Below, piece by piece: positions 1 through 26,760 of a stretch of DNA of 35,503 nt; within the stretch, counting starts at the first letter, position 1; each line of letters begins with the position of its first letter. Origin of the DNA: a virus. Its lineage: Duplodnaviria > Heunggongvirae > Uroviricota > Caudoviricetes. Where the stretch lies: IMG/VR virus record IMGVR_UViG_2896595138_000012, one strand, 5' to 3'. The notes beneath the pieces were generated by a model. That model was not told the DNA's origin. It ran no database searches and saw only the letters and a list, made by a program, of their open reading frames with translations. The translations under genes were made by a program, and so were the position numbers.

Positions 1-1002
1 TTACCCTCTATTGTCAAAAGGGTTCAATTCAACAGCAGCCTCTAAATGACCTGGAGCAAAATGCGCATAACGCATAGTCATTTTTATATCGCTATGCCCC
101 AGTATTTTTTGCAACACAAGAATATTTCCGCCCCGCATCATAAAATGACTGGCAAACGTGTGACGTAGCACATGAGTTAATTGCCCATCAGGAAGCTCGA
201 TCTTCGCTCTCTTAATTGCAGCGTCAAAAGCCTCATAACATGGTGAAAATAGCGCTCCTCGTTTTTTAGGAAGCATAGCCTGCAATTGAGGTGAAATCGG
301 TACAGTGCGGTTCTTCTTTCCTTTAGTTTTAACAAATGTGATTCGACCGGGCAGTACTTGAGATTGCTTTAATCCTTCTGCTTCACTCCACCGAGCACCA
401 GTCGCAAGCCCAATACGGACAACAACCCCCAAATCTTTATTCCGTGACTCATCACACGCAATCAGAAGGCGTTCAATCTCATCTACATACAGAAACGCCA
501 GTTCCTTTTCTTCCTCACGAAACTTGCGAATACCAGTCAGGGGGTTTTCACCAGACCACTCCCCAAGGCGCTTCAGTTCGGCAAAAACAGCATGTAGATA
601 TGACTGCTCGCGATTAACGGTTGCTTCACTAAGTTTTTTCTTCCCCTTGGGATTCCATTCTCCTGATAGCCTTCTTTCCCGATAAGTAGCAAACATATTT
701 TTGTCAAACTGAGAAGCAAATGGATCTCCCAGCCTGGAACAAATCGCCTCAAGTTTGACTTTGCGCTCTGCACCAGAGGACAAGGTTTTACCGTACATAT
801 CAAACCAACGAGCAATCAACTCAGAAAGACGAGGACCAGAACCATCTTGAAACTCGTCTCCAACTCTACTATTCATTAAACGGCGCTCATAAGAGAGCGC
901 CTCACTTTTTGTCGCAAACTGTTTACGAATGCGTTTTCCCGATGCCCCGTAGGGATAACATTCGCAAAGCCATTTACCTGATGGAATCTTACGAACCGAC
1001 AT
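1..1002 (-). CDS. int: Tyrosine site-specific integrase (P2-like phage integrase)
   Basis: 333-aa ORF; C-terminal catalytic region HVLRHTFASHF ... MTMRYAHFAP typical of tyrosine recombinases; stop codon at positions 1-3 so attL lies outside the window. Confidence 0.9.
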   Translation of the reverse strand: MSVRKIPSGKWLCECYPYGASGKRIRKQFATKSEALSYERRLMNSRVGDEFQDGSGPRLSELIARWFDMYGKTLSSGAERKVKLEAICSRLGDPFASQFDKNMFATYRERRLSGEWNPKGKKKLSEATVNREQSYLHAVFAELKRLGEWSGENPLTGIRKFREEEKELAFLYVDEIERLLIACDESRNKDLGVVVRIGLATGARWSEAEGLKQSQVLPGRITFVKTKGKKNRTVPISPQLQAMLPKKRGALFSPCYEAFDAAIKRAKIELPDGQLTHVLRHTFASHFMMRGGNILVLQKILGHSDIKMTMRYAHFAPGHLEAAVELNPFDNRG

Positions 1003-3167: not shown

Positions 3168-3371
3168 ATGTCAGGTATAACCATCAATATCAATGTGAAT
3201 GCCCCCTATGTATCCCTGCAGAAATATGCAGAGATAACAGGTATCCCTCTTAATACATGCAAAAAGATGTTGGCTGACGGTCGAATTATTATCCGCCCCA
3301 AACGTGCCAAAATGGAAAAGCCTGAAGTAAACCTTGTGGCGATGTTAAAAGACGCTTTGGCTAACAGCTAA
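3168..3371 (+). CDS. Cox-like excisionase/early regulator
   Basis: 67 aa; AGGAGG RBS; PYVSLQKYAEITGIPLNTCKKMLADGRI resembles P2 Cox N-terminal HTH (PYQEFAKLIGKSTGAVRRMIDKGKL, recalled). Confidence 0.5.
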   Translation: MSGITININVNAPYVSLQKYAEITGIPLNTCKKMLADGRIIIRPKRAKMEKPEVNLVAMLKDALANS

Positions 3372-3392
3372 AACAATGAACAGAGCATCATC

Positions 3393-3743
3393 ATGAAAAA
3401 AAACGCTAATAATCCATACTCCAAATTTCGTAATGGCGTAGAACGCCATGTACACCACGTTGCTACCAGTGCATCACGTAGCAACATCCGCTACAGCCTG
3501 AGCGATACACACGCAACGCCGGATGGCTACCCCGTAAAACAAATCGGCGAGCACGCCTGGCTGATTGAGAAAGCTGGAATCGTAGTCCACAAATACCCAC
3601 GCAATCCGTTTACCGGAAACCGCATTTTTGCTCTGAGCTGCGGCGACAATCAGTTCGGGCAGGATTTCACGTTGTACGAAGCGCTACGCACAGTTGATCG
3701 CCTTCTTTACGGAGAAAATTTTATTAAACAGGCTGAGTTATAA
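3393..3743 (+). CDS. Hypothetical early protein
   Basis: 116-aa ORF in early operon, protein-like composition. Confidence 0.55.
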   Translation: MKKNANNPYSKFRNGVERHVHHVATSASRSNIRYSLSDTHATPDGYPVKQIGEHAWLIEKAGIVVHKYPRNPFTGNRIFALSCGDNQFGQDFTLYEALRTVDRLLYGENFIKQAEL

Positions 3744-3784
3744 CAGCGGGTTTATCACCGGTTATTTTTAACGAGGACTCCGTT

Positions 3785-4027
3785 ATGAGAAAACACACAG
3801 CAGAACAGGTAAACGAATTTCTGCAGGGATATTACTTCGATAACGAAATTAATCCCCGCGCCAGAAAAACACACTTCGAAGTAATGAAGTGCGGAATATT
3901 CAGCGTCCGCAACACCCTGTTTTGTTCAAAAGATACGGGAGCCAGCGAGGACCTTAAAGAACTTAACCGGATGGCGAAACAATTAATGGATGGCATGGTT
4001 CCCGAACCCGCAATAATTACGGAGTAA
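3785..4027 (+). CDS. Hypothetical early protein
   Basis: 80-aa ORF with GAGGA RBS. Confidence 0.55.
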   Translation: MRKHTAEQVNEFLQGYYFDNEINPRARKTHFEVMKCGIFSVRNTLFCSKDTGASEDLKELNRMAKQLMDGMVPEPAIITE

Positions 4028-4032
4028 TCACG

Positions 4033-4218
4033 ATGAATTTCAGTTATTCATTCAGTGTACCGGAGTCGTTATTTGTTATCACACTGATTGCAGCCGCAAT
4101 GTTTTTTGCCATCTGCATACTGACACTTATTGATACATGGCGGGAAATACGCGACAGACGTCGCCAGAAAAAAAACGGGATGCATACAACGCATTCATTC
4201 AGCACAAAGAAGACGTAG
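4033..4218 (+). CDS. Small single-pass membrane protein
   Basis: 61 aa; GGAG RBS; hydrophobic helix VITLIAAAMFFAICILTLI followed by basic tail. Confidence 0.45.
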   Translation: MNFSYSFSVPESLFVITLIAAAMFFAICILTLIDTWREIRDRRRQKKNGMHTTHSFSTKKT

Positions 4219-4315
4219 AGCGTAAAGCACGCCGCCGTCTTTAGTTAATTAACCGGTTTCGTTAATACACCGCTCACGCGGCGGGATTCGCACAATCTGA
4301 ATAAGGGAAATAAAA

Positions 4316-4738
4316 ATGATTAATCCGACACTCACCCTCAAAGATAAAGCCCTTGCGGGCGCAATGTTTTTACGCAACTACGCCGCAATGATGGCTGACA
4401 CTGACAACCCGATTATGGTGCTGTCAGTGGAGCCTCACCTTATCGCCGCAGACGCAATTGAACAGGTGGTACAGGAAAACACCTGTCTGAGAAATCAGCT
4501 TGCCACCCTTCAGACAGCAGCTGACCCGGCAAAGGAAAGTGCTGAACACACCTGCCACACCACATTCATCAAAGGGACCCGCGTATGTCTGAAAAACAGT
4601 CCGCAGCAACGCGGAACGGTCGTTGACACCCGCACCAGTAGCCCCGCCATTGACCGGGTTTTCGTCCGTTTCGATTCCCCCTTCGAGGAAGACCGCCGGG
4701 TAAAGACCAGAAACCTGGAAATAACCCCCGACAAATGA
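4316..4738 (+). CDS. Hypothetical early protein
   Basis: 140-aa ORF; stop overlaps next start. Confidence 0.6.
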   Translation: MINPTLTLKDKALAGAMFLRNYAAMMADTDNPIMVLSVEPHLIAADAIEQVVQENTCLRNQLATLQTAADPAKESAEHTCHTTFIKGTRVCLKNSPQQRGTVVDTRTSSPAIDRVFVRFDSPFEEDRRVKTRNLEITPDK

Positions 4739-4992
4739 AGCTGATTATCCCTGCGCGACACCGCAAAAACCGGATGAAGCCAGGGGGAAAGCCGGAGCGG
4801 GCAGCAAGGGCGGCATACCGTCGCCTGCTGAAGGGGGACCGGTCACACGTGCGACGGCTGGAGCGGGTACCGCCCGCCCGCGTCATCAACGTCATGTACC
4901 GTTACCGGCTGTTAAGTCTGGACGAAGGCCGGACATGGGTACTGCTTAACCATAACGAATACGTGAAGAGGATAAGACGATGTTACAGATGA
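4735..4992 (+). CDS. Hypothetical basic protein
   Basis: 85 aa, arginine-rich; start overlaps upstream stop (operon coupling). Confidence 0.5.
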   Translation: MKLIIPARHRKNRMKPGGKPERAARAAYRRLLKGDRSHVRRLERVPPARVINVMYRYRLLSLDEGRTWVLLNHNEYVKRIRRCYR

Positions 4993-5510
4993 AATTTAAG
5001 CCCTGCTTTATTGACGCATTCCGCAACGGACGCAAGACCACATCCCTTCGCCCGACGGGGTTTGATTGCTACCAGGCGGGCCAGGAGTCAGCAGAATATT
5101 TTCATGAAGACACCCTGACCCGCAACATCGTTCTTCCCGATTACAGCGCCGGCGGTACCCTGGTTTTTGAGGAGGGAACCACATTTACCCGCGCATCAGA
5201 CTTTGCCGGACTCCTGAAAAGACAGCCCTACCGACAGTATGACAACATTCATCTGGTCACAGAAAACAAGAACGGCGAAACCGTGCCGTTCGCCGTGGCC
5301 TTCATTGCCGATATCGGTGTAATACAGGGCCGCCAGATAACCGATGAAGTGGCCGTCAGGGACGGCTTTAACCCTGAAAACCATCCCCGCGACGAACTCT
5401 TTGCATTCATGCGGGACACCTGCCACATAGAAAACCCCAAAAACGAAACCTACTGGCGGTACACCTTCACCCACATCGTGATGTTGTCGCAGTGGAGGGC
5501 TGACGCATGA
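4980..5510 (+). CDS. ASCH-like (PUA-fold) domain protein
   Basis: 176 aa; N-terminal F-x3-F-x2-NGRKTTSLRP pattern resembles ASCH domain start (recalled). Confidence 0.45.
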   Translation: MLQMKFKPCFIDAFRNGRKTTSLRPTGFDCYQAGQESAEYFHEDTLTRNIVLPDYSAGGTLVFEEGTTFTRASDFAGLLKRQPYRQYDNIHLVTENKNGETVPFAVAFIADIGVIQGRQITDEVAVRDGFNPENHPRDELFAFMRDTCHIENPKNETYWRYTFTHIVMLSQWRADA

Positions 5511-5746
5511 AACCCGCCATTATCTGCATTCTGTGCGAGAGCACTGTCACCGGCGGCCATTACCGCATCAGGGAACGCCACATCAACCCTGACCGTTCGC
5601 TGCTGGACAACATCACCGGCCCGAATGATGAACGCGTGATCTGCCTGAACGACGGCTCGCAGTTACGCGTGCGCAATATCCGGCGCGAAATCACGCTCGA
5701 ACCCACCCCATTCACACGCGGGAAAAAACCGGAGAGTGACGCATGA
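5507..5746 (+). CDS. Hypothetical protein
   Basis: 79-aa ORF with overlapping start/stop coupling to neighbours. Confidence 0.5.
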   Translation: MKPAIICILCESTVTGGHYRIRERHINPDRSLLDNITGPNDERVICLNDGSQLRVRNIRREITLEPTPFTRGKKPESDA

Positions 5747-6702
5747 AAGGTATTCTGAACCAGCGCTCACCGCTCAAATGGGCGGGCGGCAAATTCAGTA
5801 TCATGCCGCAGCTGCGCGAATATTTACCCAAAGCCGCCTGCCTGATCGAACCCTTCGTGGGCGGCGGCTCGGTCTTCATGAACACGGATTATGACTATTA
5901 CGTATTGTGTGACAGCAACCCCGCGCTGATTAATTTCTACCAGCAACTGACGACCAACACCACGGAATTAATGGATCGTGCATGGTCACTCTTTAAGGAT
6001 GGCGGCACACCGGAAGCCTACAAACGCCATCGCGGAGCATTTAACACCATCGCGCTGGCCACCGACAGATTACGCGGAGAATCCCTGGAATGGGCAGCGC
6101 TGTTTCTGTACCTGAACCGCCATTGCTTTAACGGCCTGTACCGCACCAACCAAAAAGGCGAATTCAATGTGCCATTCGGCAAACACCGCATGCCTTATTT
6201 CCCCTGCCAGGAAATGCGCCTGTTTGCTGATAAAGCCAACGAGACCCGGACCCGCTTTATTCACGCGGATTTCCGTACAGCCTTCACAATGCCGGCTGAG
6301 ATCCACCGTTTTTCTTCGGTGCACGGCGATATCGCCATTTACTGCGATCCGCCCTACCTGCCACCGAACGGTAAAGAGGCGTTCACTCACTACAACGGCC
6401 GGGCATTTACCCGCAAAGACCACCGTGACCTTGCGGCGCTCATGATGAACGCCTGGCAACGTTACGGTATCCACCCGGTGGTCTCCAACAGTGACACCTC
6501 CGAAACCCGGCAGATCTATTCCTCGTTTGAGCTGCACACCCTGAGCGTTCGCCGCGCTGTGGCTGCCAGCAGCAGTGCACGCCAGCAGGCAAAAGAGGTG
6601 ATTGGTGTTTATCCGCCAGCCCGTGAGGTCCGGATCCGGGATGTCAATGCGGGCTGGCTGTCTCACATTCCCGCTCCACACCCCACCACGGAGATCATGT
6701 AA
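5743..6702 (+). CDS. dam: DNA adenine (N6) methyltransferase, Dam family
   Basis: 319 aa; N-terminal LKWAGGK and catalytic DPPY (IYCDPPYLPP) motifs, strong resemblance to E. coli Dam N-terminus. Confidence 0.9.
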   Translation: MKGILNQRSPLKWAGGKFSIMPQLREYLPKAACLIEPFVGGGSVFMNTDYDYYVLCDSNPALINFYQQLTTNTTELMDRAWSLFKDGGTPEAYKRHRGAFNTIALATDRLRGESLEWAALFLYLNRHCFNGLYRTNQKGEFNVPFGKHRMPYFPCQEMRLFADKANETRTRFIHADFRTAFTMPAEIHRFSSVHGDIAIYCDPPYLPPNGKEAFTHYNGRAFTRKDHRDLAALMMNAWQRYGIHPVVSNSDTSETRQIYSSFELHTLSVRRAVAASSSARQQAKEVIGVYPPAREVRIRDVNAGWLSHIPAPHPTTEIM

Positions 6703-7013
6703 TGGCCATTATCTATATCGCCGGCCCCATGACGGGGAAGCCTGATTTCAACCGCACCGCCTTCACCATGACGGCGACCCGCCTGAGGATGCAGGGTCAT
6801 ACCGTACTCAACCCCGCAACACTCCCTGACGGGCTGAGATACAGGGACTACATGCTTATCGGGAGCGCCATGCTGCACTGTGCCGATGTGATTTACCTGC
6901 TGGATGGCTGGGAGGACTCGCCGGGGGCAAAAGAGGAACACGCCACCGCCCTGAAACTGAATCTGATCATCTCCACACCAGAAAGCCGTAAGGAGGCCAA
7001 ATCATGTTTCTGA
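6702..7013 (+). CDS. DUF4406 / nucleoside 2-deoxyribosyltransferase-like protein
   Basis: 103 aa; N-terminal IYIAGPMTG and later DVIYLLDGWEDSPGAKEE motif typical of this fold (recalled); start overlaps dam stop. Confidence 0.55.
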   Translation: MAIIYIAGPMTGKPDFNRTAFTMTATRLRMQGHTVLNPATLPDGLRYRDYMLIGSAMLHCADVIYLLDGWEDSPGAKEEHATALKLNLIISTPESRKEAKSCF

Positions 7014-7558
7014 AACCAATGGGGGGACCAGGTAAAGCACCGAAGCACGTCAGTGCCTGGACACAACAGGAAGACGAACTGCTTATCTCGCTTTATCAGG
7101 ATCACAGCACATGGCAAATGGCTGAACGACTTCAGCGAACCCGCAGCGCAGTGATGCACCGGATTCTTTTTTTACGTAATCGCGGGTTGATTGGTCGCAA
7201 GAGAAAAGCACCGCTGAGTGCAGAAGCCATCGCCTTTCTCACCAAAAACCGTCACGCAAAAACCGCACGGGAACTGGCCCGGAAGGCGGGATGCAGCGAG
7301 TGCACCGTGAGGTACACACTGCATAAACGGGGTTACAGCCTTAAGAAATGCGGCGAGAGCCACCATTGCACCAGATACAGCGATCGTCTGGCTGAGCTGG
7401 TTACGGAGCTACGCGACAGACGCAACATGACGTTCTGCATAATCGCGAAACACATCAACATCACGATGCAAATGCACATCAGCGATGATACGGCGTTTCA
7501 CCTCTACAACCGCCGGACCGCCGCCGACGCCCTGTTGTACGAACTGCTGCCGAACTGA
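7004..7558 (+). CDS. DNA-binding protein with Myb/SANT-like HTH repeats
   Basis: 184 aa; W-x-EDELL-x-W ... RNRG and further basic HTH-like segments. Confidence 0.5.
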   Translation: MFLKPMGGPGKAPKHVSAWTQQEDELLISLYQDHSTWQMAERLQRTRSAVMHRILFLRNRGLIGRKRKAPLSAEAIAFLTKNRHAKTARELARKAGCSECTVRYTLHKRGYSLKKCGESHHCTRYSDRLAELVTELRDRRNMTFCIIAKHINITMQMHISDDTAFHLYNRRTAADALLYELLPN

Positions 7559-7678
7559 GTGATCATCATGCACACACAAAAAAACCGCTTGCCATGTCGC
7601 AATCAGTCAGGTTACATTTCCGCTGCACCTCATAAAACGGGTGCCGGGATTGAGACCCCGCTGACAAACGTAGCGCAC

Positions 7679-7699
7679 AACCGCGCCAGCGGTTTTTTT
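7679..7699 (+). terminator. Rho-independent terminator-like hairpin
   Basis: AACCGC-GCCA-GCGGTT stem-loop followed by a T7 run, about 120 nt after the 184-aa gene. Confidence 0.45.
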
Positions 7700-7878
7700 G
7701 TGCGTACCGTATCGTCACACCTTTTTCGCATCAGAATTATGGTGGGGCGTACAGGGCCGACTTCGGTCGGGCCGGGTTCTGCGTTTGCCGGTAGTCTCAA
7801 CCCTGTACGTCTCACCACCCCGAGTTTGAGACCTCTGGATGGTGAGTTTTCAAAACTTACACACGTAGAGGCCACACC

Positions 7879-8106
7879 ATGGCAAACCGCAAACAACAGC
7901 GCGCATACGCTGCGCGTCGTCACATCCGGACTGAAATCAACCGCAGACTTTTCCGCGCCTTCCGCGTCGCGCATATCATGCACATCAATATGCTGCATGA
8001 GCGCAGTCACGCACTGTCAAACACCTATTCCGCCGCTGTTTTCAGCTATCTGGCGGATGATCTGCGCGGGCTGCGGGACCTCATTAACCAGCACTACCAC
8101 CACTAA
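7879..8106 (+). CDS. Hypothetical small basic protein
   Basis: 75 aa; AGAGG RBS 7 nt upstream of ATG; preferred over the overlapping 202-aa ORF, which has non-protein-like composition. Confidence 0.4.
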   Translation: MANRKQQRAYAARRHIRTEINRRLFRAFRVAHIMHINMLHERSHALSNTYSAAVFSYLADDLRGLRDLINQHYHH

Positions 8107-8163
8107 TCAACATCCCGCATCCATACGCGGGAGGCTTCCGCACGTCCGTTTCCGGAGGTTCTC

Positions 8164-8577
8164 ATGAAGAGCGTTAAGGGACTTTCAGATATTCAGGATT
8201 TTTTTAACTGGATGTGGGCGGTGGATCCACGCCTCGCTTCCCGTCTCAATGACCTGCACGACTATTACCGCCGCGCCTGTAAACAGGCCGCCAGCAGCGC
8301 CACCACATACGGTGAGTTTTCCTTCACCGTTGACGACCGTTACCGCGTGGACGTCAGAGACCAGAACAACAGCCTGGAGCTGGGCCTGTTCCACATCAAC
8401 GGACTCGACAGCAGTGTTATCAGCTGGTCATCGTCAGAAATGGTGCTCGTTCTGGAAATGACCACCCACAGCGTGGTCGTGAAAGGGATTAAAACGGCAG
8501 AAGACTTTATCGCTGAATACCAGCGTCTTCTTGTGCTGTACCGGGCTGCATTTCAGAAGGCAACAGCAGGGGAGTAA
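8164..8577 (+). CDS. Hypothetical protein upstream of replication gene (position of P2 B)
   Basis: 137 aa; GGAGG RBS 6 nt upstream. Confidence 0.55.
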   Translation: MKSVKGLSDIQDFFNWMWAVDPRLASRLNDLHDYYRRACKQAASSATTYGEFSFTVDDRYRVDVRDQNNSLELGLFHINGLDSSVISWSSSEMVLVLEMTTHSVVVKGIKTAEDFIAEYQRLLVLYRAAFQKATAGE

Positions 8578-23278: not shown

Positions 23279-23718
23279 AAATTTCAGACAACGGGCTGGC
23301 CGCACTTAAACGCGAAGAAAACTGCAAACTGACCGCTTACCCCGATCCGCGCGGCGTATGGACCATTGGTACAGGTCACACAGGAAAGGTTGATGGTGTC
23401 GCAGTTCACAAAGGCATGACCATCACCCAGGACACCGCCGACAGACTGCTACGCGACGATCTGTCATGGGTGGAGCACTGCATCGCTGAACGGGTAACAG
23501 TTCCGCTGAACCAGAGTCAGTATGACGCGTTGTGTAGCCTGATTTTCAATATCGGCGCTGACGCTTTTATCGGTTCCACCGTTCGCCGTCAGTTAAACGC
23601 CGGCAACTACACCGCCGCCGCTGATGCTTTCCTGAAATGGAGCCGCGCAGGCAGTAACCCGACAATTCTGGCCCCGCGTCGCGGACGTGAGCGGGCAATG
23701 TTTCTGGGACAGAGGTAA
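23275..23718 (+). CDS. Phage lysozyme / endolysin (GH24, T4-lysozyme-like)
   Basis: 147 aa; catalytic E-x9-D-x5-T triad region REENCKLTAYPDPRGVWTIGTGHT. Confidence 0.85.
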   Translation: MKISDNGLAALKREENCKLTAYPDPRGVWTIGTGHTGKVDGVAVHKGMTITQDTADRLLRDDLSWVEHCIAERVTVPLNQSQYDALCSLIFNIGADAFIGSTVRRQLNAGNYTAAADAFLKWSRAGSNPTILAPRRGRERAMFLGQR

Positions 23719-23724
23719 GGCCAC

Positions 23725-24189
23725 ATGAAACGCGCAACACTCGCCTTTATCGTCTTCATGGTCGTCGCCGTGGCCGTGCTCGGCTTCACAGCTGACTACT
23801 GGCACAACCGCTTCACCAGGGCAGAAAAAGCCCGCCAGAAAGCCGTAAATCTTGCCGACACCCGACAGCAGACCATTGACGACATGACACTGCGTCAGCG
23901 CCAGAACGCCGCGCTTGATGCGAAATACACAAAGGAGCTCGCCAATGCAAAAGCTGAATCCGAAAAGTTACGCGCCGATCTTGCTTCTGGCCGTCGCCGG
24001 TTGCAGCTCCACGCCGTCTGTATGCCCGCCGCCACGCGTGATACCACCGCCACCGGCTCAACTGATGCAACCGCCGCCCGACTTACTCCGGACGCTGAAC
24101 GGGATTATCAGCATCTCAGAGCCGAAGCGAAAGCCGTCGTTGCACAAGTGAACGGCCTGCAACAGTACATTACTGAACAATGTCATTAA
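23725..24189 (+). CDS. Rz-like i-spanin
   Basis: 154 aa; N-terminal TM anchor then charged coiled-coil periplasmic domain; follows lysozyme. Confidence 0.7.
   Translation: MKRATLAFIVFMVVAVAVLGFTADYWHNRFTRAEKARQKAVNLADTRQQTIDDMTLRQRQNAALDAKYTKELANAKAESEKLRADLASGRRRLQLHAVCMPAATRDTTATGSTDATAARLTPDAERDYQHLRAEAKAVVAQVNGLQQYITEQCH
23945..24151 (+). CDS. Rz1-like o-spanin lipoprotein (embedded in Rz, +1 frame)
   Basis: AGGAG RBS; signal peptide with lipobox LAVAGC; proline-rich mature part. Confidence 0.7.
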   Translation: MQKLNPKSYAPILLLAVAGCSSTPSVCPPPRVIPPPPAQLMQPPPDLLRTLNGIISISEPKRKPSLHK

Positions 24190-24192
24190 AAA

Positions 24193-24492
24193 ATGGCACC
24201 ACTCACCGGGGAAAATAGCATGAAAGACGAAAATACCACCATCATCACCCTGACCGTCGCAGGCGAGGACATTCGCTTCGCCCCGACCGAAGCTGTCTAC
24301 AACAAGTTCGTGAATGAAATAACGATGGATAACAAGGTGGCGCCAGCCAAAAACTACCTGATGCGCTGTGTACACCCGGAAGACAAAGAGAAACTGGAGA
24401 AGCTCATTCACCGCCCGGGAGCAGCCCTTCAGATGGCAGCAAAACTCAATGAAGATTTTGCCGTCAATCTGGATATCACCGTAAAAAAATAA
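24193..24492 (+). CDS. Tail assembly chaperone (P2 gpE-like); -1 frameshift product would extend to 24680
   Basis: 99 aa ending VKK at an A AAA AAA heptamer directly before the tape measure gene. Confidence 0.65.
   Translation: MAPLTGENSMKDENTTIITLTVAGEDIRFAPTEAVYNKFVNEITMDNKVAPAKNYLMRCVHPEDKEKLEKLIHRPGAALQMAAKLNEDFAVNLDITVKK
24483..24489 (+). other. Programmed -1 ribosomal frameshift slippery heptamer
   Basis: A_AAA_AAA in X_XXY_YYZ register at the last two codons of the chaperone; -1 frame open to a TAA at 24678-24680. Confidence 0.6.
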
Positions 24493-24819
24493 AGGCGGCA
24501 CTGTCCGGCATTGAGCGCAACGGCTACGCGCAATATCTGGTATTACGCCGCCACTGGCTACCGGATGGCGAGGACACACCGGAAGACATTGCCGCTGCGG
24601 TCTGGCTGGACAACCGTTATTTCGAAAACATGAGTATTGCCGTCAATAACGGCATTGCGAGAGCATTTAAAGGTGGGTAATGGCTGCTGAACTTGATTTT
24701 ACGCTAAGTCTGGTTGATAAGCTGACGAGACCCTTAAAACAGGCGCAATCGGCTGTGACCGGATTTGCTGACAAGGCAACAGCCGACTTTAAACGTCTCG
24801 GTTTTGGTGTGGCCGGGTT

Positions 24820-26760
24820 ATGGGGGCTGCTCAGGGAATAAAAGGACTGGTCAACCCCGCCCGCGACATGGAAGCCGCGCTGGCCGAAGTCAGCTCGCTG
24901 GATGTGGCAAATAAAACACTCGATCAGCTGCGTAAAACTTCACAGACGTTTGCCATTAACTACGGCGAAAGCGCCAGCAATTTCGTCCGCAGCGCCTACG
25001 ATATCCAGTCCGCCATCGCAGGACTTCAGGGTGACGAACTGCCAAAATTTACTGAAGCATCCGCCATTCTCGCCAAAGCCACCAAATCAGACACGGCCAC
25101 CATTACTAACTATATGGGCACCATGTACGGTGTTTTTAAAAATACCGCAGAGAAGATGGGGCGCACGCAGTGGGTTGAACAAATTGCCGGGCAGACCGCA
25201 ACCGCCGTTCAGGTGTTCAAAACTACCGGTAATGAAATGTCTGCTGCCTTTACTGCGCTGGGTGCCAACGCGCAGGCAATGAAGGTATCTGCCGCTGAAC
25301 AGTTCGCCGTACTGGGACAGCTCCAGTCCACCATGTCAGGCAGCGAGGCGGGAACCAAATATAAATCATTCCTGGCGGGGATTGGGAATGCGCAAAAAGT
25401 GCTGGGGCTGAACTTTACCAACCGGGACGGCAGTGCCAGAAGCATTACCGGTATCATCGACCTGATTAAAGGAAAGTTTGGCGATCTGTCAAAAGTGGCA
25501 GATGCAGACCTGCTGAAAAAAGCCTTTGGCAGCGATGAAGCGGTGTCCATGATTAAACTACTGACCGGAGATGTTGACGGGCTGAAACGGAACATCAATA
25601 CATTAGGTAACATCAAAGGCATGGATAAAGCCATCGAAATGGCGAAAAAGATGGTTGACCCGTGGGATCAGGTTAATTCTTTACTGGAGCAGGTTCGCGT
25701 CAGCATTGGTCTGCGGCTCGATCCCGTCTTTGCCCCGTTCCTGCAAAAAATCATCACCGGCGGGAAAGCCTTCATGAAATGGCTGGATACGTTCCCCAAT
25801 ATTGCCCGCTGGCTGGGATATATCACTGCAATGACCCTCGCCTTTGCCGCAGCAGGGGCGCTTGCCAGTATCACGATGGGGGCCTTCGGCTTTATCATGA
25901 CCGGGCTCAGCGGAATTGCTGGCGTGCTGAAAGGCGCATGGAAAGGACTAATCTTCACCCTGGATTTATTACGCCCCTCCCTGCTTTCAACCCGTCTTGG
26001 CCTGATGGGGCTATGGATTCAGGAAAAAGCCGTCTGGGTGTGGTCAAAGCTGGTCGCTCTTTGGGCAGGGATCTGTAAAGCAGCGATCGTAGCCTGGAAC
26101 GTAGTGTTACGTGCGGGCGCGGTTGCAATGCGCCTGTGGGGCGTGGCGACGGCATTCGCAGGCGGTGCGCTTCAACTCCTGATAAGTCCCATAACCCTGA
26201 TTATTCTCGCCATTGCCGCACTTGCCGTAGGGATCTGTCTGGCTATCAAATACTGGGACAGTATTAAAGCCGCCATCATGGACACGGAAGCTTTCAGTGC
26301 CCTGCTAAAAGTCATTAACGCTGTGGTGGGCTGGTTTGATGATGCATGGAACAGCATTAAAGCCGGATGGGACAATCTGACGAACTGGTTTAAAAATTTC
26401 TCGCTGGCCGACACATTCGGCAATATCACAGCTGGAATTGGCAAGCTCTTTGACGGCATATGGGATTCCATTAAGAGCGCCTTTACCGGGACATGGAACT
26501 GGATAGCAGAGAAGCTCAACAAAATCCCCGGTGTCAATATCAGCACCGCACAACAGACCGTCGCACCGACACCCGCCCCGGAGCTTATCACTGGCAACCG
26601 TAGCGCCGCCATCCAGGGCGGGCCGGTAAGTCACCAGATAAGCAACAACCGGGGCGACAAAGTCACCAATAACAACGTTAAGCAGGATATCACACTGCAC
26701 GTTGACACCCTGGCGACACCGGGACAACTGGCGGAATACAGCGAACTGGCAGCGGGGTGA
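24820..26760 (+). CDS. Tail tape measure protein (5' end apparently frameshifted; true start probably 24680)
   Basis: 646 aa, Ala/Gly-rich with central hydrophobic segments; follows chaperone pair. Confidence 0.8.
   Translation: MGAAQGIKGLVNPARDMEAALAEVSSLDVANKTLDQLRKTSQTFAINYGESASNFVRSAYDIQSAIAGLQGDELPKFTEASAILAKATKSDTATITNYMGTMYGVFKNTAEKMGRTQWVEQIAGQTATAVQVFKTTGNEMSAAFTALGANAQAMKVSAAEQFAVLGQLQSTMSGSEAGTKYKSFLAGIGNAQKVLGLNFTNRDGSARSITGIIDLIKGKFGDLSKVADADLLKKAFGSDEAVSMIKLLTGDVDGLKRNINTLGNIKGMDKAIEMAKKMVDPWDQVNSLLEQVRVSIGLRLDPVFAPFLQKIITGGKAFMKWLDTFPNIARWLGYITAMTLAFAAAGALASITMGAFGFIMTGLSGIAGVLKGAWKGLIFTLDLLRPSLLSTRLGLMGLWIQEKAVWVWSKLVALWAGICKAAIVAWNVVLRAGAVAMRLWGVATAFAGGALQLLISPITLIILAIAALAVGICLAIKYWDSIKAAIMDTEAFSALLKVINAVVGWFDDAWNSIKAGWDNLTNWFKNFSLADTFGNITAGIGKLFDGIWDSIKSAFTGTWNWIAEKLNKIPGVNISTAQQTVAPTPAPELITGNRSAAIQGGPVSHQISNNRGDKVTNNNVKQDITLHVDTLATPGQLAEYSELAAG

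Follow-up and report, generated by a model that had tools for sequence, protein, structure and literature searches.

Introduction

The phage protein described here resembles enzymes of the nucleoside deoxyribosyltransferase/DNPH1 superfamily. Nucleoside 2'-deoxyribosyltransferases (NDTs), such as T. brucei PDT (TbPDT, PDB 2a0k) and the L. leichmannii NDT, are proteins of 150-160 amino acids which swap bases between deoxynucleosides. DNPH1, also named Rcl, is a 2'-deoxynucleoside 5'-phosphate N-hydrolase with a catalytic Asp. MilB and BlsM of Streptomyces are CMP and hydroxymethyl-CMP (hmCMP) N-glycosidases. MilB is approximately 160 amino acids in length and has Asp78, Phe22, and Arg23 for recognition of the base and ribose. 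Ser97 and Gly99 of MilB hydrogen-bond the 5'-phosphate of hmCMP (PMC4081090). A phage system of this kind, DutZ-DmtZ, has been characterized, in which a dNTP pyrophosphatase feeds an NDT-like dAMP N-hydrolase/deoxyribose-5-phosphate transferase; phage Wayne has the pair as a fusion (PMC12884076). DmtZ is found in Z-genome phages, has the catalytic residues Tyr6, Asn77, and Glu103 with Trp124 as lid, and, by its authors' account, lacks a Pfam model (PMC12884076).

The DNA analyzed here is a stretch of 35,503 nucleotides from IMG/VR record IMGVR_UViG_2896595138_000012, referred to below as the window. A Dam methyltransferase gene in the window is followed directly by the gene of a 103 amino acid DUF4406 protein. 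A first-pass annotation had taken this pairing to suggest a joint role in DNA modification or nucleotide-pool manipulation. The window adds a new member to known families, and the proposed partnership with Dam is unsupported. On balance, we favor two independent accessory genes in a P2-like early operon, one an orphan Dam and the other a DUF4406 nucleotide N-glycosidase.

Prophage and Early Operon

The window is a P2-like (Peduoviridae-type) prophage. An integrase gene is located at 1..1002, and replication gene A (8583..10742) precedes the portal, terminase, and P2-family capsid genes. The Dam and DUF4406 genes belong to the rightward early operon, with the cox/C switch region on one side and gene A on the other. 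The segment from 5000 to 7600 was 99.3% identical to a prophage in five of 5426 complete E. coli genomes. In E. coli CFSAN029787, the one annotated carrier, this prophage adjoins yecA. No sequenced phage in the phage collection matched the segment by megablast. The gene A ORF is 719 amino acids in the window (8583-10742) compared to an 830 amino acid replication endonuclease in the CFSAN029787 prophage (23569-26061 of that locus). Downstream, the CFSAN029787 prophage also contains an IS600 insertion. Beyond the compared 5000-7600 segment, then, the two prophages are not the same.

Five consecutive genes on the plus strand, spanning 4980-7558, overlap at four junctions (5507/5510, 5743/5746, 6702/6702, and 7004/7013). 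The first encodes 176 amino acids (4980..5510, phrog_27392) and its stop overlaps the next start. The second encodes 79 amino acids (5507..5746, phrog_20193) and has an ATGA overlap with the start of Dam (5743..6702). The DUF4406 gene (6702..7013) is followed by a gene for a Myb/HTH-like DNA-binding protein of 184 amino acids (7004..7558, phrog_323), annotated in E. coli genomes as a DNA-binding or SANT/Myb-like protein. The ATG of this last gene precedes the DUF4406 stop by 10 nt and has AAGGAGG 8 nt ahead of it. The HTH family was considered as a recurrent downstream partner of DUF4406 and rejected, pairwise comparison giving E values of only 1.5 and 0.002. No terminator-like sites were found on the plus strand within 5060-7679.

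The Dam-DUF4406 junction reads ATC ATG TAA TGG. The Dam stop TAA occupies 6700-6702 and the DUF4406 ATG 6702-6704, giving a 1-nt overlap (TAATG) at 6702, as the first-pass annotation had recognized. A Shine-Dalgarno sequence (GGAG, 6690-6693, plus strand) was read 8 nt ahead of this ATG. Such an overlap is common in the family. In 47 of the 80 closest IMG/VR loci there is an overlap of 1-10 nt between the start of DUF4406 and the ORF ahead of it, and such an overlap is present in 35 of the 67 loci in that set which have a non-methylase gene upstream. The overlap is real but generic for a compact phage early operon. Dam and DUF4406 probably adjoin because the whole operon is packed in this way, and not as a conserved functional unit.

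What looks like a gap after the HTH gene and ahead of gene A contains two small RNA genes. An isrK Hfq-binding RNA was predicted on the plus strand at 7625-7699 (Rfam, 67.3 bits against a gathering score of 50), flanked by a promoter-like site (7589-7618) and a hairpin resembling a terminator (7679-7694). A C4 antisense RNA of the P1/P7 immunity type was predicted on the plus strand at 7735-7822 (81.8 bits against a gathering score of 45). Small ORFs at 7879..8106 and 8164..8577 come after the two RNA genes. The arrangement resembles a module of the c4/icd/ant or isrK/anrP type, set within the early operon of a P2-like phage. A 202 amino acid ORF with a GTG start (7559-8167, plus strand) overlaps both small RNAs and is probably not a real gene. 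In the identical E. coli prophage only a 77 amino acid ORF is annotated there.

The Dam Methyltransferase

The ORF at 5743 had been called a phage Dam on the basis of LKWAGGK and DPPY motifs, and the profile searches agree. Its product of 319 amino acids, encoded on the plus strand, is an orphan Dam-family N6-adenine DNA methyltransferase. It matched PF02086 of the D12 class (E 1.1e-52), the TIGR00571 dam subfamily (237.6 bits, cut-off 114.85), and the PADLOC orphan methyltransferase model (4.8e-80). Motif I, LKWAGGK, comprises residues 11-17 and the catalytic DPPY residues 202-205 (6346-6357). The TIGR00571 match and both motifs are in common with E. coli Dam and phage orphan Dam methylases. 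The window Dam differs from E. coli Dam in scoring 232 bits on the equivalog model, which has a cut-off of 441, and so is not an equivalog. Past the Pfam domain the protein continues in a C-terminal tail of approximately 30-45 amino acids (residues 273-319). In the identical E. coli prophage the annotation shows no gene for a restriction enzyme beside Dam. The frequency of GATC in the window is unremarkable (113 observed compared to 126 ± 10 expected). This is a routine orphan phage methylase. It would be expected to methylate GATC, keeping the fast-replicating phage DNA fully methylated and protected from restriction.

Family and Fold of the DUF4406 Protein

The 103 amino acid protein (6702..7013, plus strand) contains the motifs IYIAGPMTG and DGWEDSPGAKEE. 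It had been assigned to DUF4406 with a nucleoside 2-deoxyribosyltransferase-like fold, and HMM search and structure prediction support both points. The match to PF14359 had an E value of 8.3e-30 and 103.5 bits (cut-off 22), with residues 4-90 on profile positions 3-89. As 87 of the 91 profile positions are covered this is a full-length domain. The protein also matched phrog_355, labeled nucleoside 2-deoxyribosyltransferase, at 2e-36. No PADLOC or NCBIfam model matched it. An AlphaFold2 model built from a 97-sequence alignment (pLDDT 96.1, pTM 0.88) has four strands alternating with helices and is a minimal domain of the nucleoside deoxyribosyltransferase/DNPH1 superfamily, with its alpha/beta flavodoxin-like fold. 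The model matches NDTs, DNPH1, and MilB, the best Foldseek matches being trypanosomatid NDTs. The domain is approximately 40-60 residues shorter than an NDT or DNPH1 (TM normalized to target of approximately 0.5).

A search of the PDB with the single sequence gave chance matches only and the family profile was needed. With the profile the T. brucei NDT was matched at an E value of 2.6e-5, and the profile aligns to MilB also. DNPH1 gave no sequence-level match to the protein, and identity to it is just 20-25%. PDB 1t1j (APC5043), a hypothetical protein which is itself uncharacterized, is 18% identical. PF09152 (DUF1937) gave a weak match, below cut-off, to a DUF4406 homologue.

DUF4406 is abundant, with 630 phage records and approximately 8,900 clusters in a protein library at 50% identity. 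The first-pass annotation described the family as poorly characterized. This is accurate for the literature searched, in which no experimental characterization of DUF4406 was found and the name occurs in three papers, in each case outside the title and abstract.

Predicted Active Site of the DUF4406 Protein

Five key codons were located on the plus strand of the DUF4406 gene: Tyr5 (6714-6716), Gly54 (6861-6863), Ser73 (6918-6920), Gly75 (6924-6926), and Glu79 (6936-6938). Glu79 is at the nucleophile position after strand 4. Its counterparts in the alignments are the Glu in the GTAFE of TbPDT and E103 of MilB, and it is conserved in 94 of 97 homologues. Tyr5, in the IYIAGP of strand 1, aligns with KIYIAGP of TbPDT. 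This column is Tyr in 81 and Phe in 12 of the 97 and so is not universal. Ser73 (97/97) and Gly75 (95/97) align to the phosphate-binding Ser97 and Gly99 of MilB. A small uncharged Ser/Gly, and not Asp, at the pocket of the 5'-substituent is the mark of the monophosphate N-glycosidase subgroup, which includes DNPH1, MilB, BlsM, and DmtZ, as opposed to the nucleoside transferases, and the DUF4406 protein has it.

The comparison with deoxyribosyltransferases and DNPH1 which the first-pass annotation had suggested thus holds for Glu79 and Tyr5 but fails at the catalytic Asp/Asn site. In two independent profile alignments the position on helix 3 of MilB Asp78, TbPDT Asn53, and DmtZ Asn77 is occupied by Gly54, and the catalytic Asp of DNPH1 has no counterpart either. 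Across the 97 homologues this column is Cys in 40, Asp in 19, Gly in 17, Thr in nine, Ser in six, and Ala in five. From these alignments, two of the three residues of the catalytic triad and the phosphate pocket are in place, and the general acid appears to be absent. As canonical acid catalysis would be lacking the substrate may not be an ordinary dNMP. Residues 36-50 form a family-specific and nearly invariant loop, LNPAxLPDGL...Y, which is DUF4406's own when compared to MilB. This loop may supply the function of the absent acid, with Asp43, Tyr50, and Asn37 as candidate replacements. On the alignments, the protein lacks a defining active-site feature of the enzymes that have been characterized. 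It should not be filed as a nucleoside 2'-deoxyribosyltransferase or as an orthologue of DNPH1 or MilB.

The DutZ-DmtZ system is similar in that a phage enzyme of the NDT superfamily acts on a dNMP and is coupled or fused to a dNTP pyrophosphatase. DUF4406 has an analogous fusion. Protein gp157 of Mycobacterium phage Hannaconda (2516-3235 of the locus examined) has an N-terminal DUF4406 domain and a C-terminal MazG-like NTP pyrophosphohydrolase domain (match to DR2231 in the PDB, E 4.6e-5). The fusion supports a mononucleotide substrate for DUF4406. DmtZ differs in being larger, in having Asn where the DUF4406 protein has Gly, and in its context, the window prophage being without one of the PurZ type.

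The annotation of Hannaconda gp157 is merely nucleotide pyrophosphohydrolase. Other fusions join DUF4406 to DUF6378 (PF19905, E approximately 1e-21), an uncharacterized phage domain, in two loci (2427-3092 in L143 and 3983-4642 in L144). For DUF6378 no solved relative was detectable and no informative paper was found. Ten long DUF4406-containing proteins from the representative library had no second Pfam domain. Arthrobacter phage Kepler gp54 (2480-2848 of its locus, 122 amino acids), labeled deoxycytidylate deaminase, was considered as a deaminase fusion and rejected. It matched DUF4406 and, weakly and below cut-off, the PF05014 NDT model; no deaminase domain was matched and this is a DUF4406-only protein. 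The label is probably wrong. Related proteins of Arthrobacter phage Galaxy and of the Microbacterium phages Percival and Gretchen are labeled in the same way.

The residues in the alignments and the MazG-like fusion make it somewhat probable, in our judgment, that DUF4406 is an N-glycosidase, possibly a phosphodeoxyribosyl transferase, which acts on a 5'-phosphorylated nucleotide and edits the nucleotide pool early in infection. Ser73 and Gly75 would grip the phosphate and Tyr5 would position Glu79. Glu79 would then attack C1' of the 5'-phosphorylated (deoxy)nucleotide, and the base would be released or exchanged. The nucleotide pool could in this way be edited or sanitized as phage replication begins.

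Genomic Neighbors of DUF4406

Approximately 220 related loci were surveyed in three samples. These were the 80 closest viral loci and 80 bacterial loci with one genome per species, both found with a 27-sequence alignment as query, and 59 more distant viral loci for which Vibrio, Arthrobacter, and Mycobacterium phage homologues were the queries. The survey bears on the joint role that had been read from the pairing, and on an alternative in which DUF4406 is a helper of SAM-dependent DNA methyltransferases and removes a by-product. Such a helper would cleave S-adenosylhomocysteine (SAH), relieving product inhibition, or destroy m6dAMP or m5dCMP against re-incorporation. DNPH1 acts on hmdUMP and is an analogy for the destruction of methylated dNMPs.

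Among the 80 closest IMG/VR loci the upstream neighbors include DnaB helicase (10), D12 Dam (nine), and PF05869 Dam (four), and the downstream neighbors include DUF1382 (eight), C5 cytosine methylase (seven), and Ead/Ea22 (five). A DNA or SAM methyltransferase is directly adjacent in 20 of the 80. Four families are represented, the D12 and PF05869 Dams, the C5 methylases (three of them in sandwiches), and generic SAM methyltransferases (three). Rank ±1 accounts for 23 of the 35 methylase ORFs located within 5 kb. SAM or SAH would be the factor common to these classes, which speaks for a helper. The same Dam-DUF4406 overlap in Aeromonas phage 4_4512 does so as well. Against it, the 80 loci are redundant and reduce to approximately five adjacent and approximately seven non-adjacent arrangement types. 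The adjacent types are the P2-like Dam-DUF4406, Dam-DUF4406-Dcm, PF05869-DUF4406, DUF4406-Dcm, and DUF4406 followed by a generic SAM methyltransferase. In the Dam-DUF4406-Dcm sandwiches (L024 3088-5344, L025 3286-5488, and L027 3515-5717) a D12 Dam is upstream with a 1-nt overlap and a C5 methylase downstream with a 4-nt overlap.

The other two samples also argue against a helper. In the distant viral loci at most two of 98 direct neighbors are methylases, and two are dATP/dGTP diphosphohydrolases. The actinophage members had no methylase nearby. In the bacterial loci at least five of 135 direct neighbors, among the families listed, are DNA methylases (two C5, two N6/N4, and one MT-A70). A local D12 HMM found no D12 Dam beside DUF4406 in these 80 loci. 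At rank ±2 there are at least three PF05869 Dams among the families listed, and a local HMM scan placed methylases scattered over ranks -5 to +4.

Dam also occurs without DUF4406. The closest phage Dam (52% identity) is at the same early-operon position in Klebsiella phage 3LV2017, a member of the Peduoviridae (3324-4463 of the locus). No DUF4406 was present in the 7.8-kb locus examined, where approximately 830 nt without annotated genes follow Dam. DUF4406 is most frequent in the phage collection under the genera Mycobacterium (211), Vibrio (124), Arthrobacter (83), and Gordonia (73). For D12 Dam the leading genera are Klebsiella (125), Rheinheimera (115), Synechococcus (54), and Erwinia (49). 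There is no overlap among the leading genera, and just two, Escherichia and Klebsiella, occur in both lists.

Dam-DUF4406 synteny reaches down to approximately 47% Dam and 58-59% DUF4406 identity in two loci (L007 and L008). Apart from P2-like relatives, the adjacency occurs in just one other small group, and it was not conserved across divergent lineages beyond a shared genome region. The synteny is inherited within the P2-like lineage and is not a conserved module. With a generic overlap, a lineage-confined adjacency, and a Dam without DUF4406 in 3LV2017, the joint role drawn from the pairing is not supported. The helper function is an unlikely reading of DUF4406, kept as a minority alternative. 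The modest enrichment of several methylase families beside enterobacterial DUF4406 is compatible with both being accessory genes of the same early or "nin" region. Searches of the literature for a methyltransferase-NDT pairing in prophages gave nothing relevant.

A broader form of the idea holds that in enterobacterial temperate phages DUF4406 was repeatedly recruited beside unrelated methyltransferases (D12 Dam, PF05869 Dam, and C5 Dcm). There it would serve as an acid-less N-glycosidase clearing SAH or methylated dNMPs, or as an anti-defense enzyme on a nucleotide signal. The chance of this is small.

Discussion

The two independent accessory genes, with DUF4406 as a putative nucleotide N-glycosidase, were weighed against three further explanations. 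An anti-defense enzyme would break down an immune signal derived from a nucleotide, or have NAD-type substrates, where the leaving group is cationic and no acid catalyst is needed. This reading is improbable. No PADLOC or NCBIfam model was matched, and known anti-defense genes were not recurrent among the direct neighbors scanned. Similarity to TIR is to be expected of a fold of this class. Mononucleotides are instead the substrates suggested by the invariant Ser/Gly motif for the phosphate and by the fusion to a MazG-like domain.

A genuine nucleoside 2'-deoxyribosyltransferase is the reading of PHROG and of many phage annotations. The phrog_355 label favors it, as do the conserved Tyr and Glu and the trypanosomatid NDTs as best profile and Foldseek matches. 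In the alignment to TbPDT, which is nucleoside-specific, the Asp of the 5'-OH-binding site is replaced by the invariant Ser73, as in the monophosphate hydrolase MilB. The general acid appears to be absent and the PF05014 NDT model matched DUF4406 relatives only below threshold. We consider it unlikely that the protein is such an enzyme.

A decoy or regulator for which catalysis is irrelevant, such as one poisoning host NDT-like retron effectors set off by a phage methylase, is very improbable. In its favor is only the coincidence that retron Ec86 has an NDT-like effector and senses phage methylation. The active-site residues are nearly invariant in the 97 diverse homologues, which indicates that catalysis is under selection, and DUF4406 is widespread in phages of hosts with no known retron link of this kind.

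For the family, the label nucleoside 2-deoxyribosyltransferase on most DUF4406 annotations is probably wrong in detail, the Ser/Gly phosphate binders being present and the canonical Asp absent in most members. DUF4406 is a cheap and well-defined target for enzymology.
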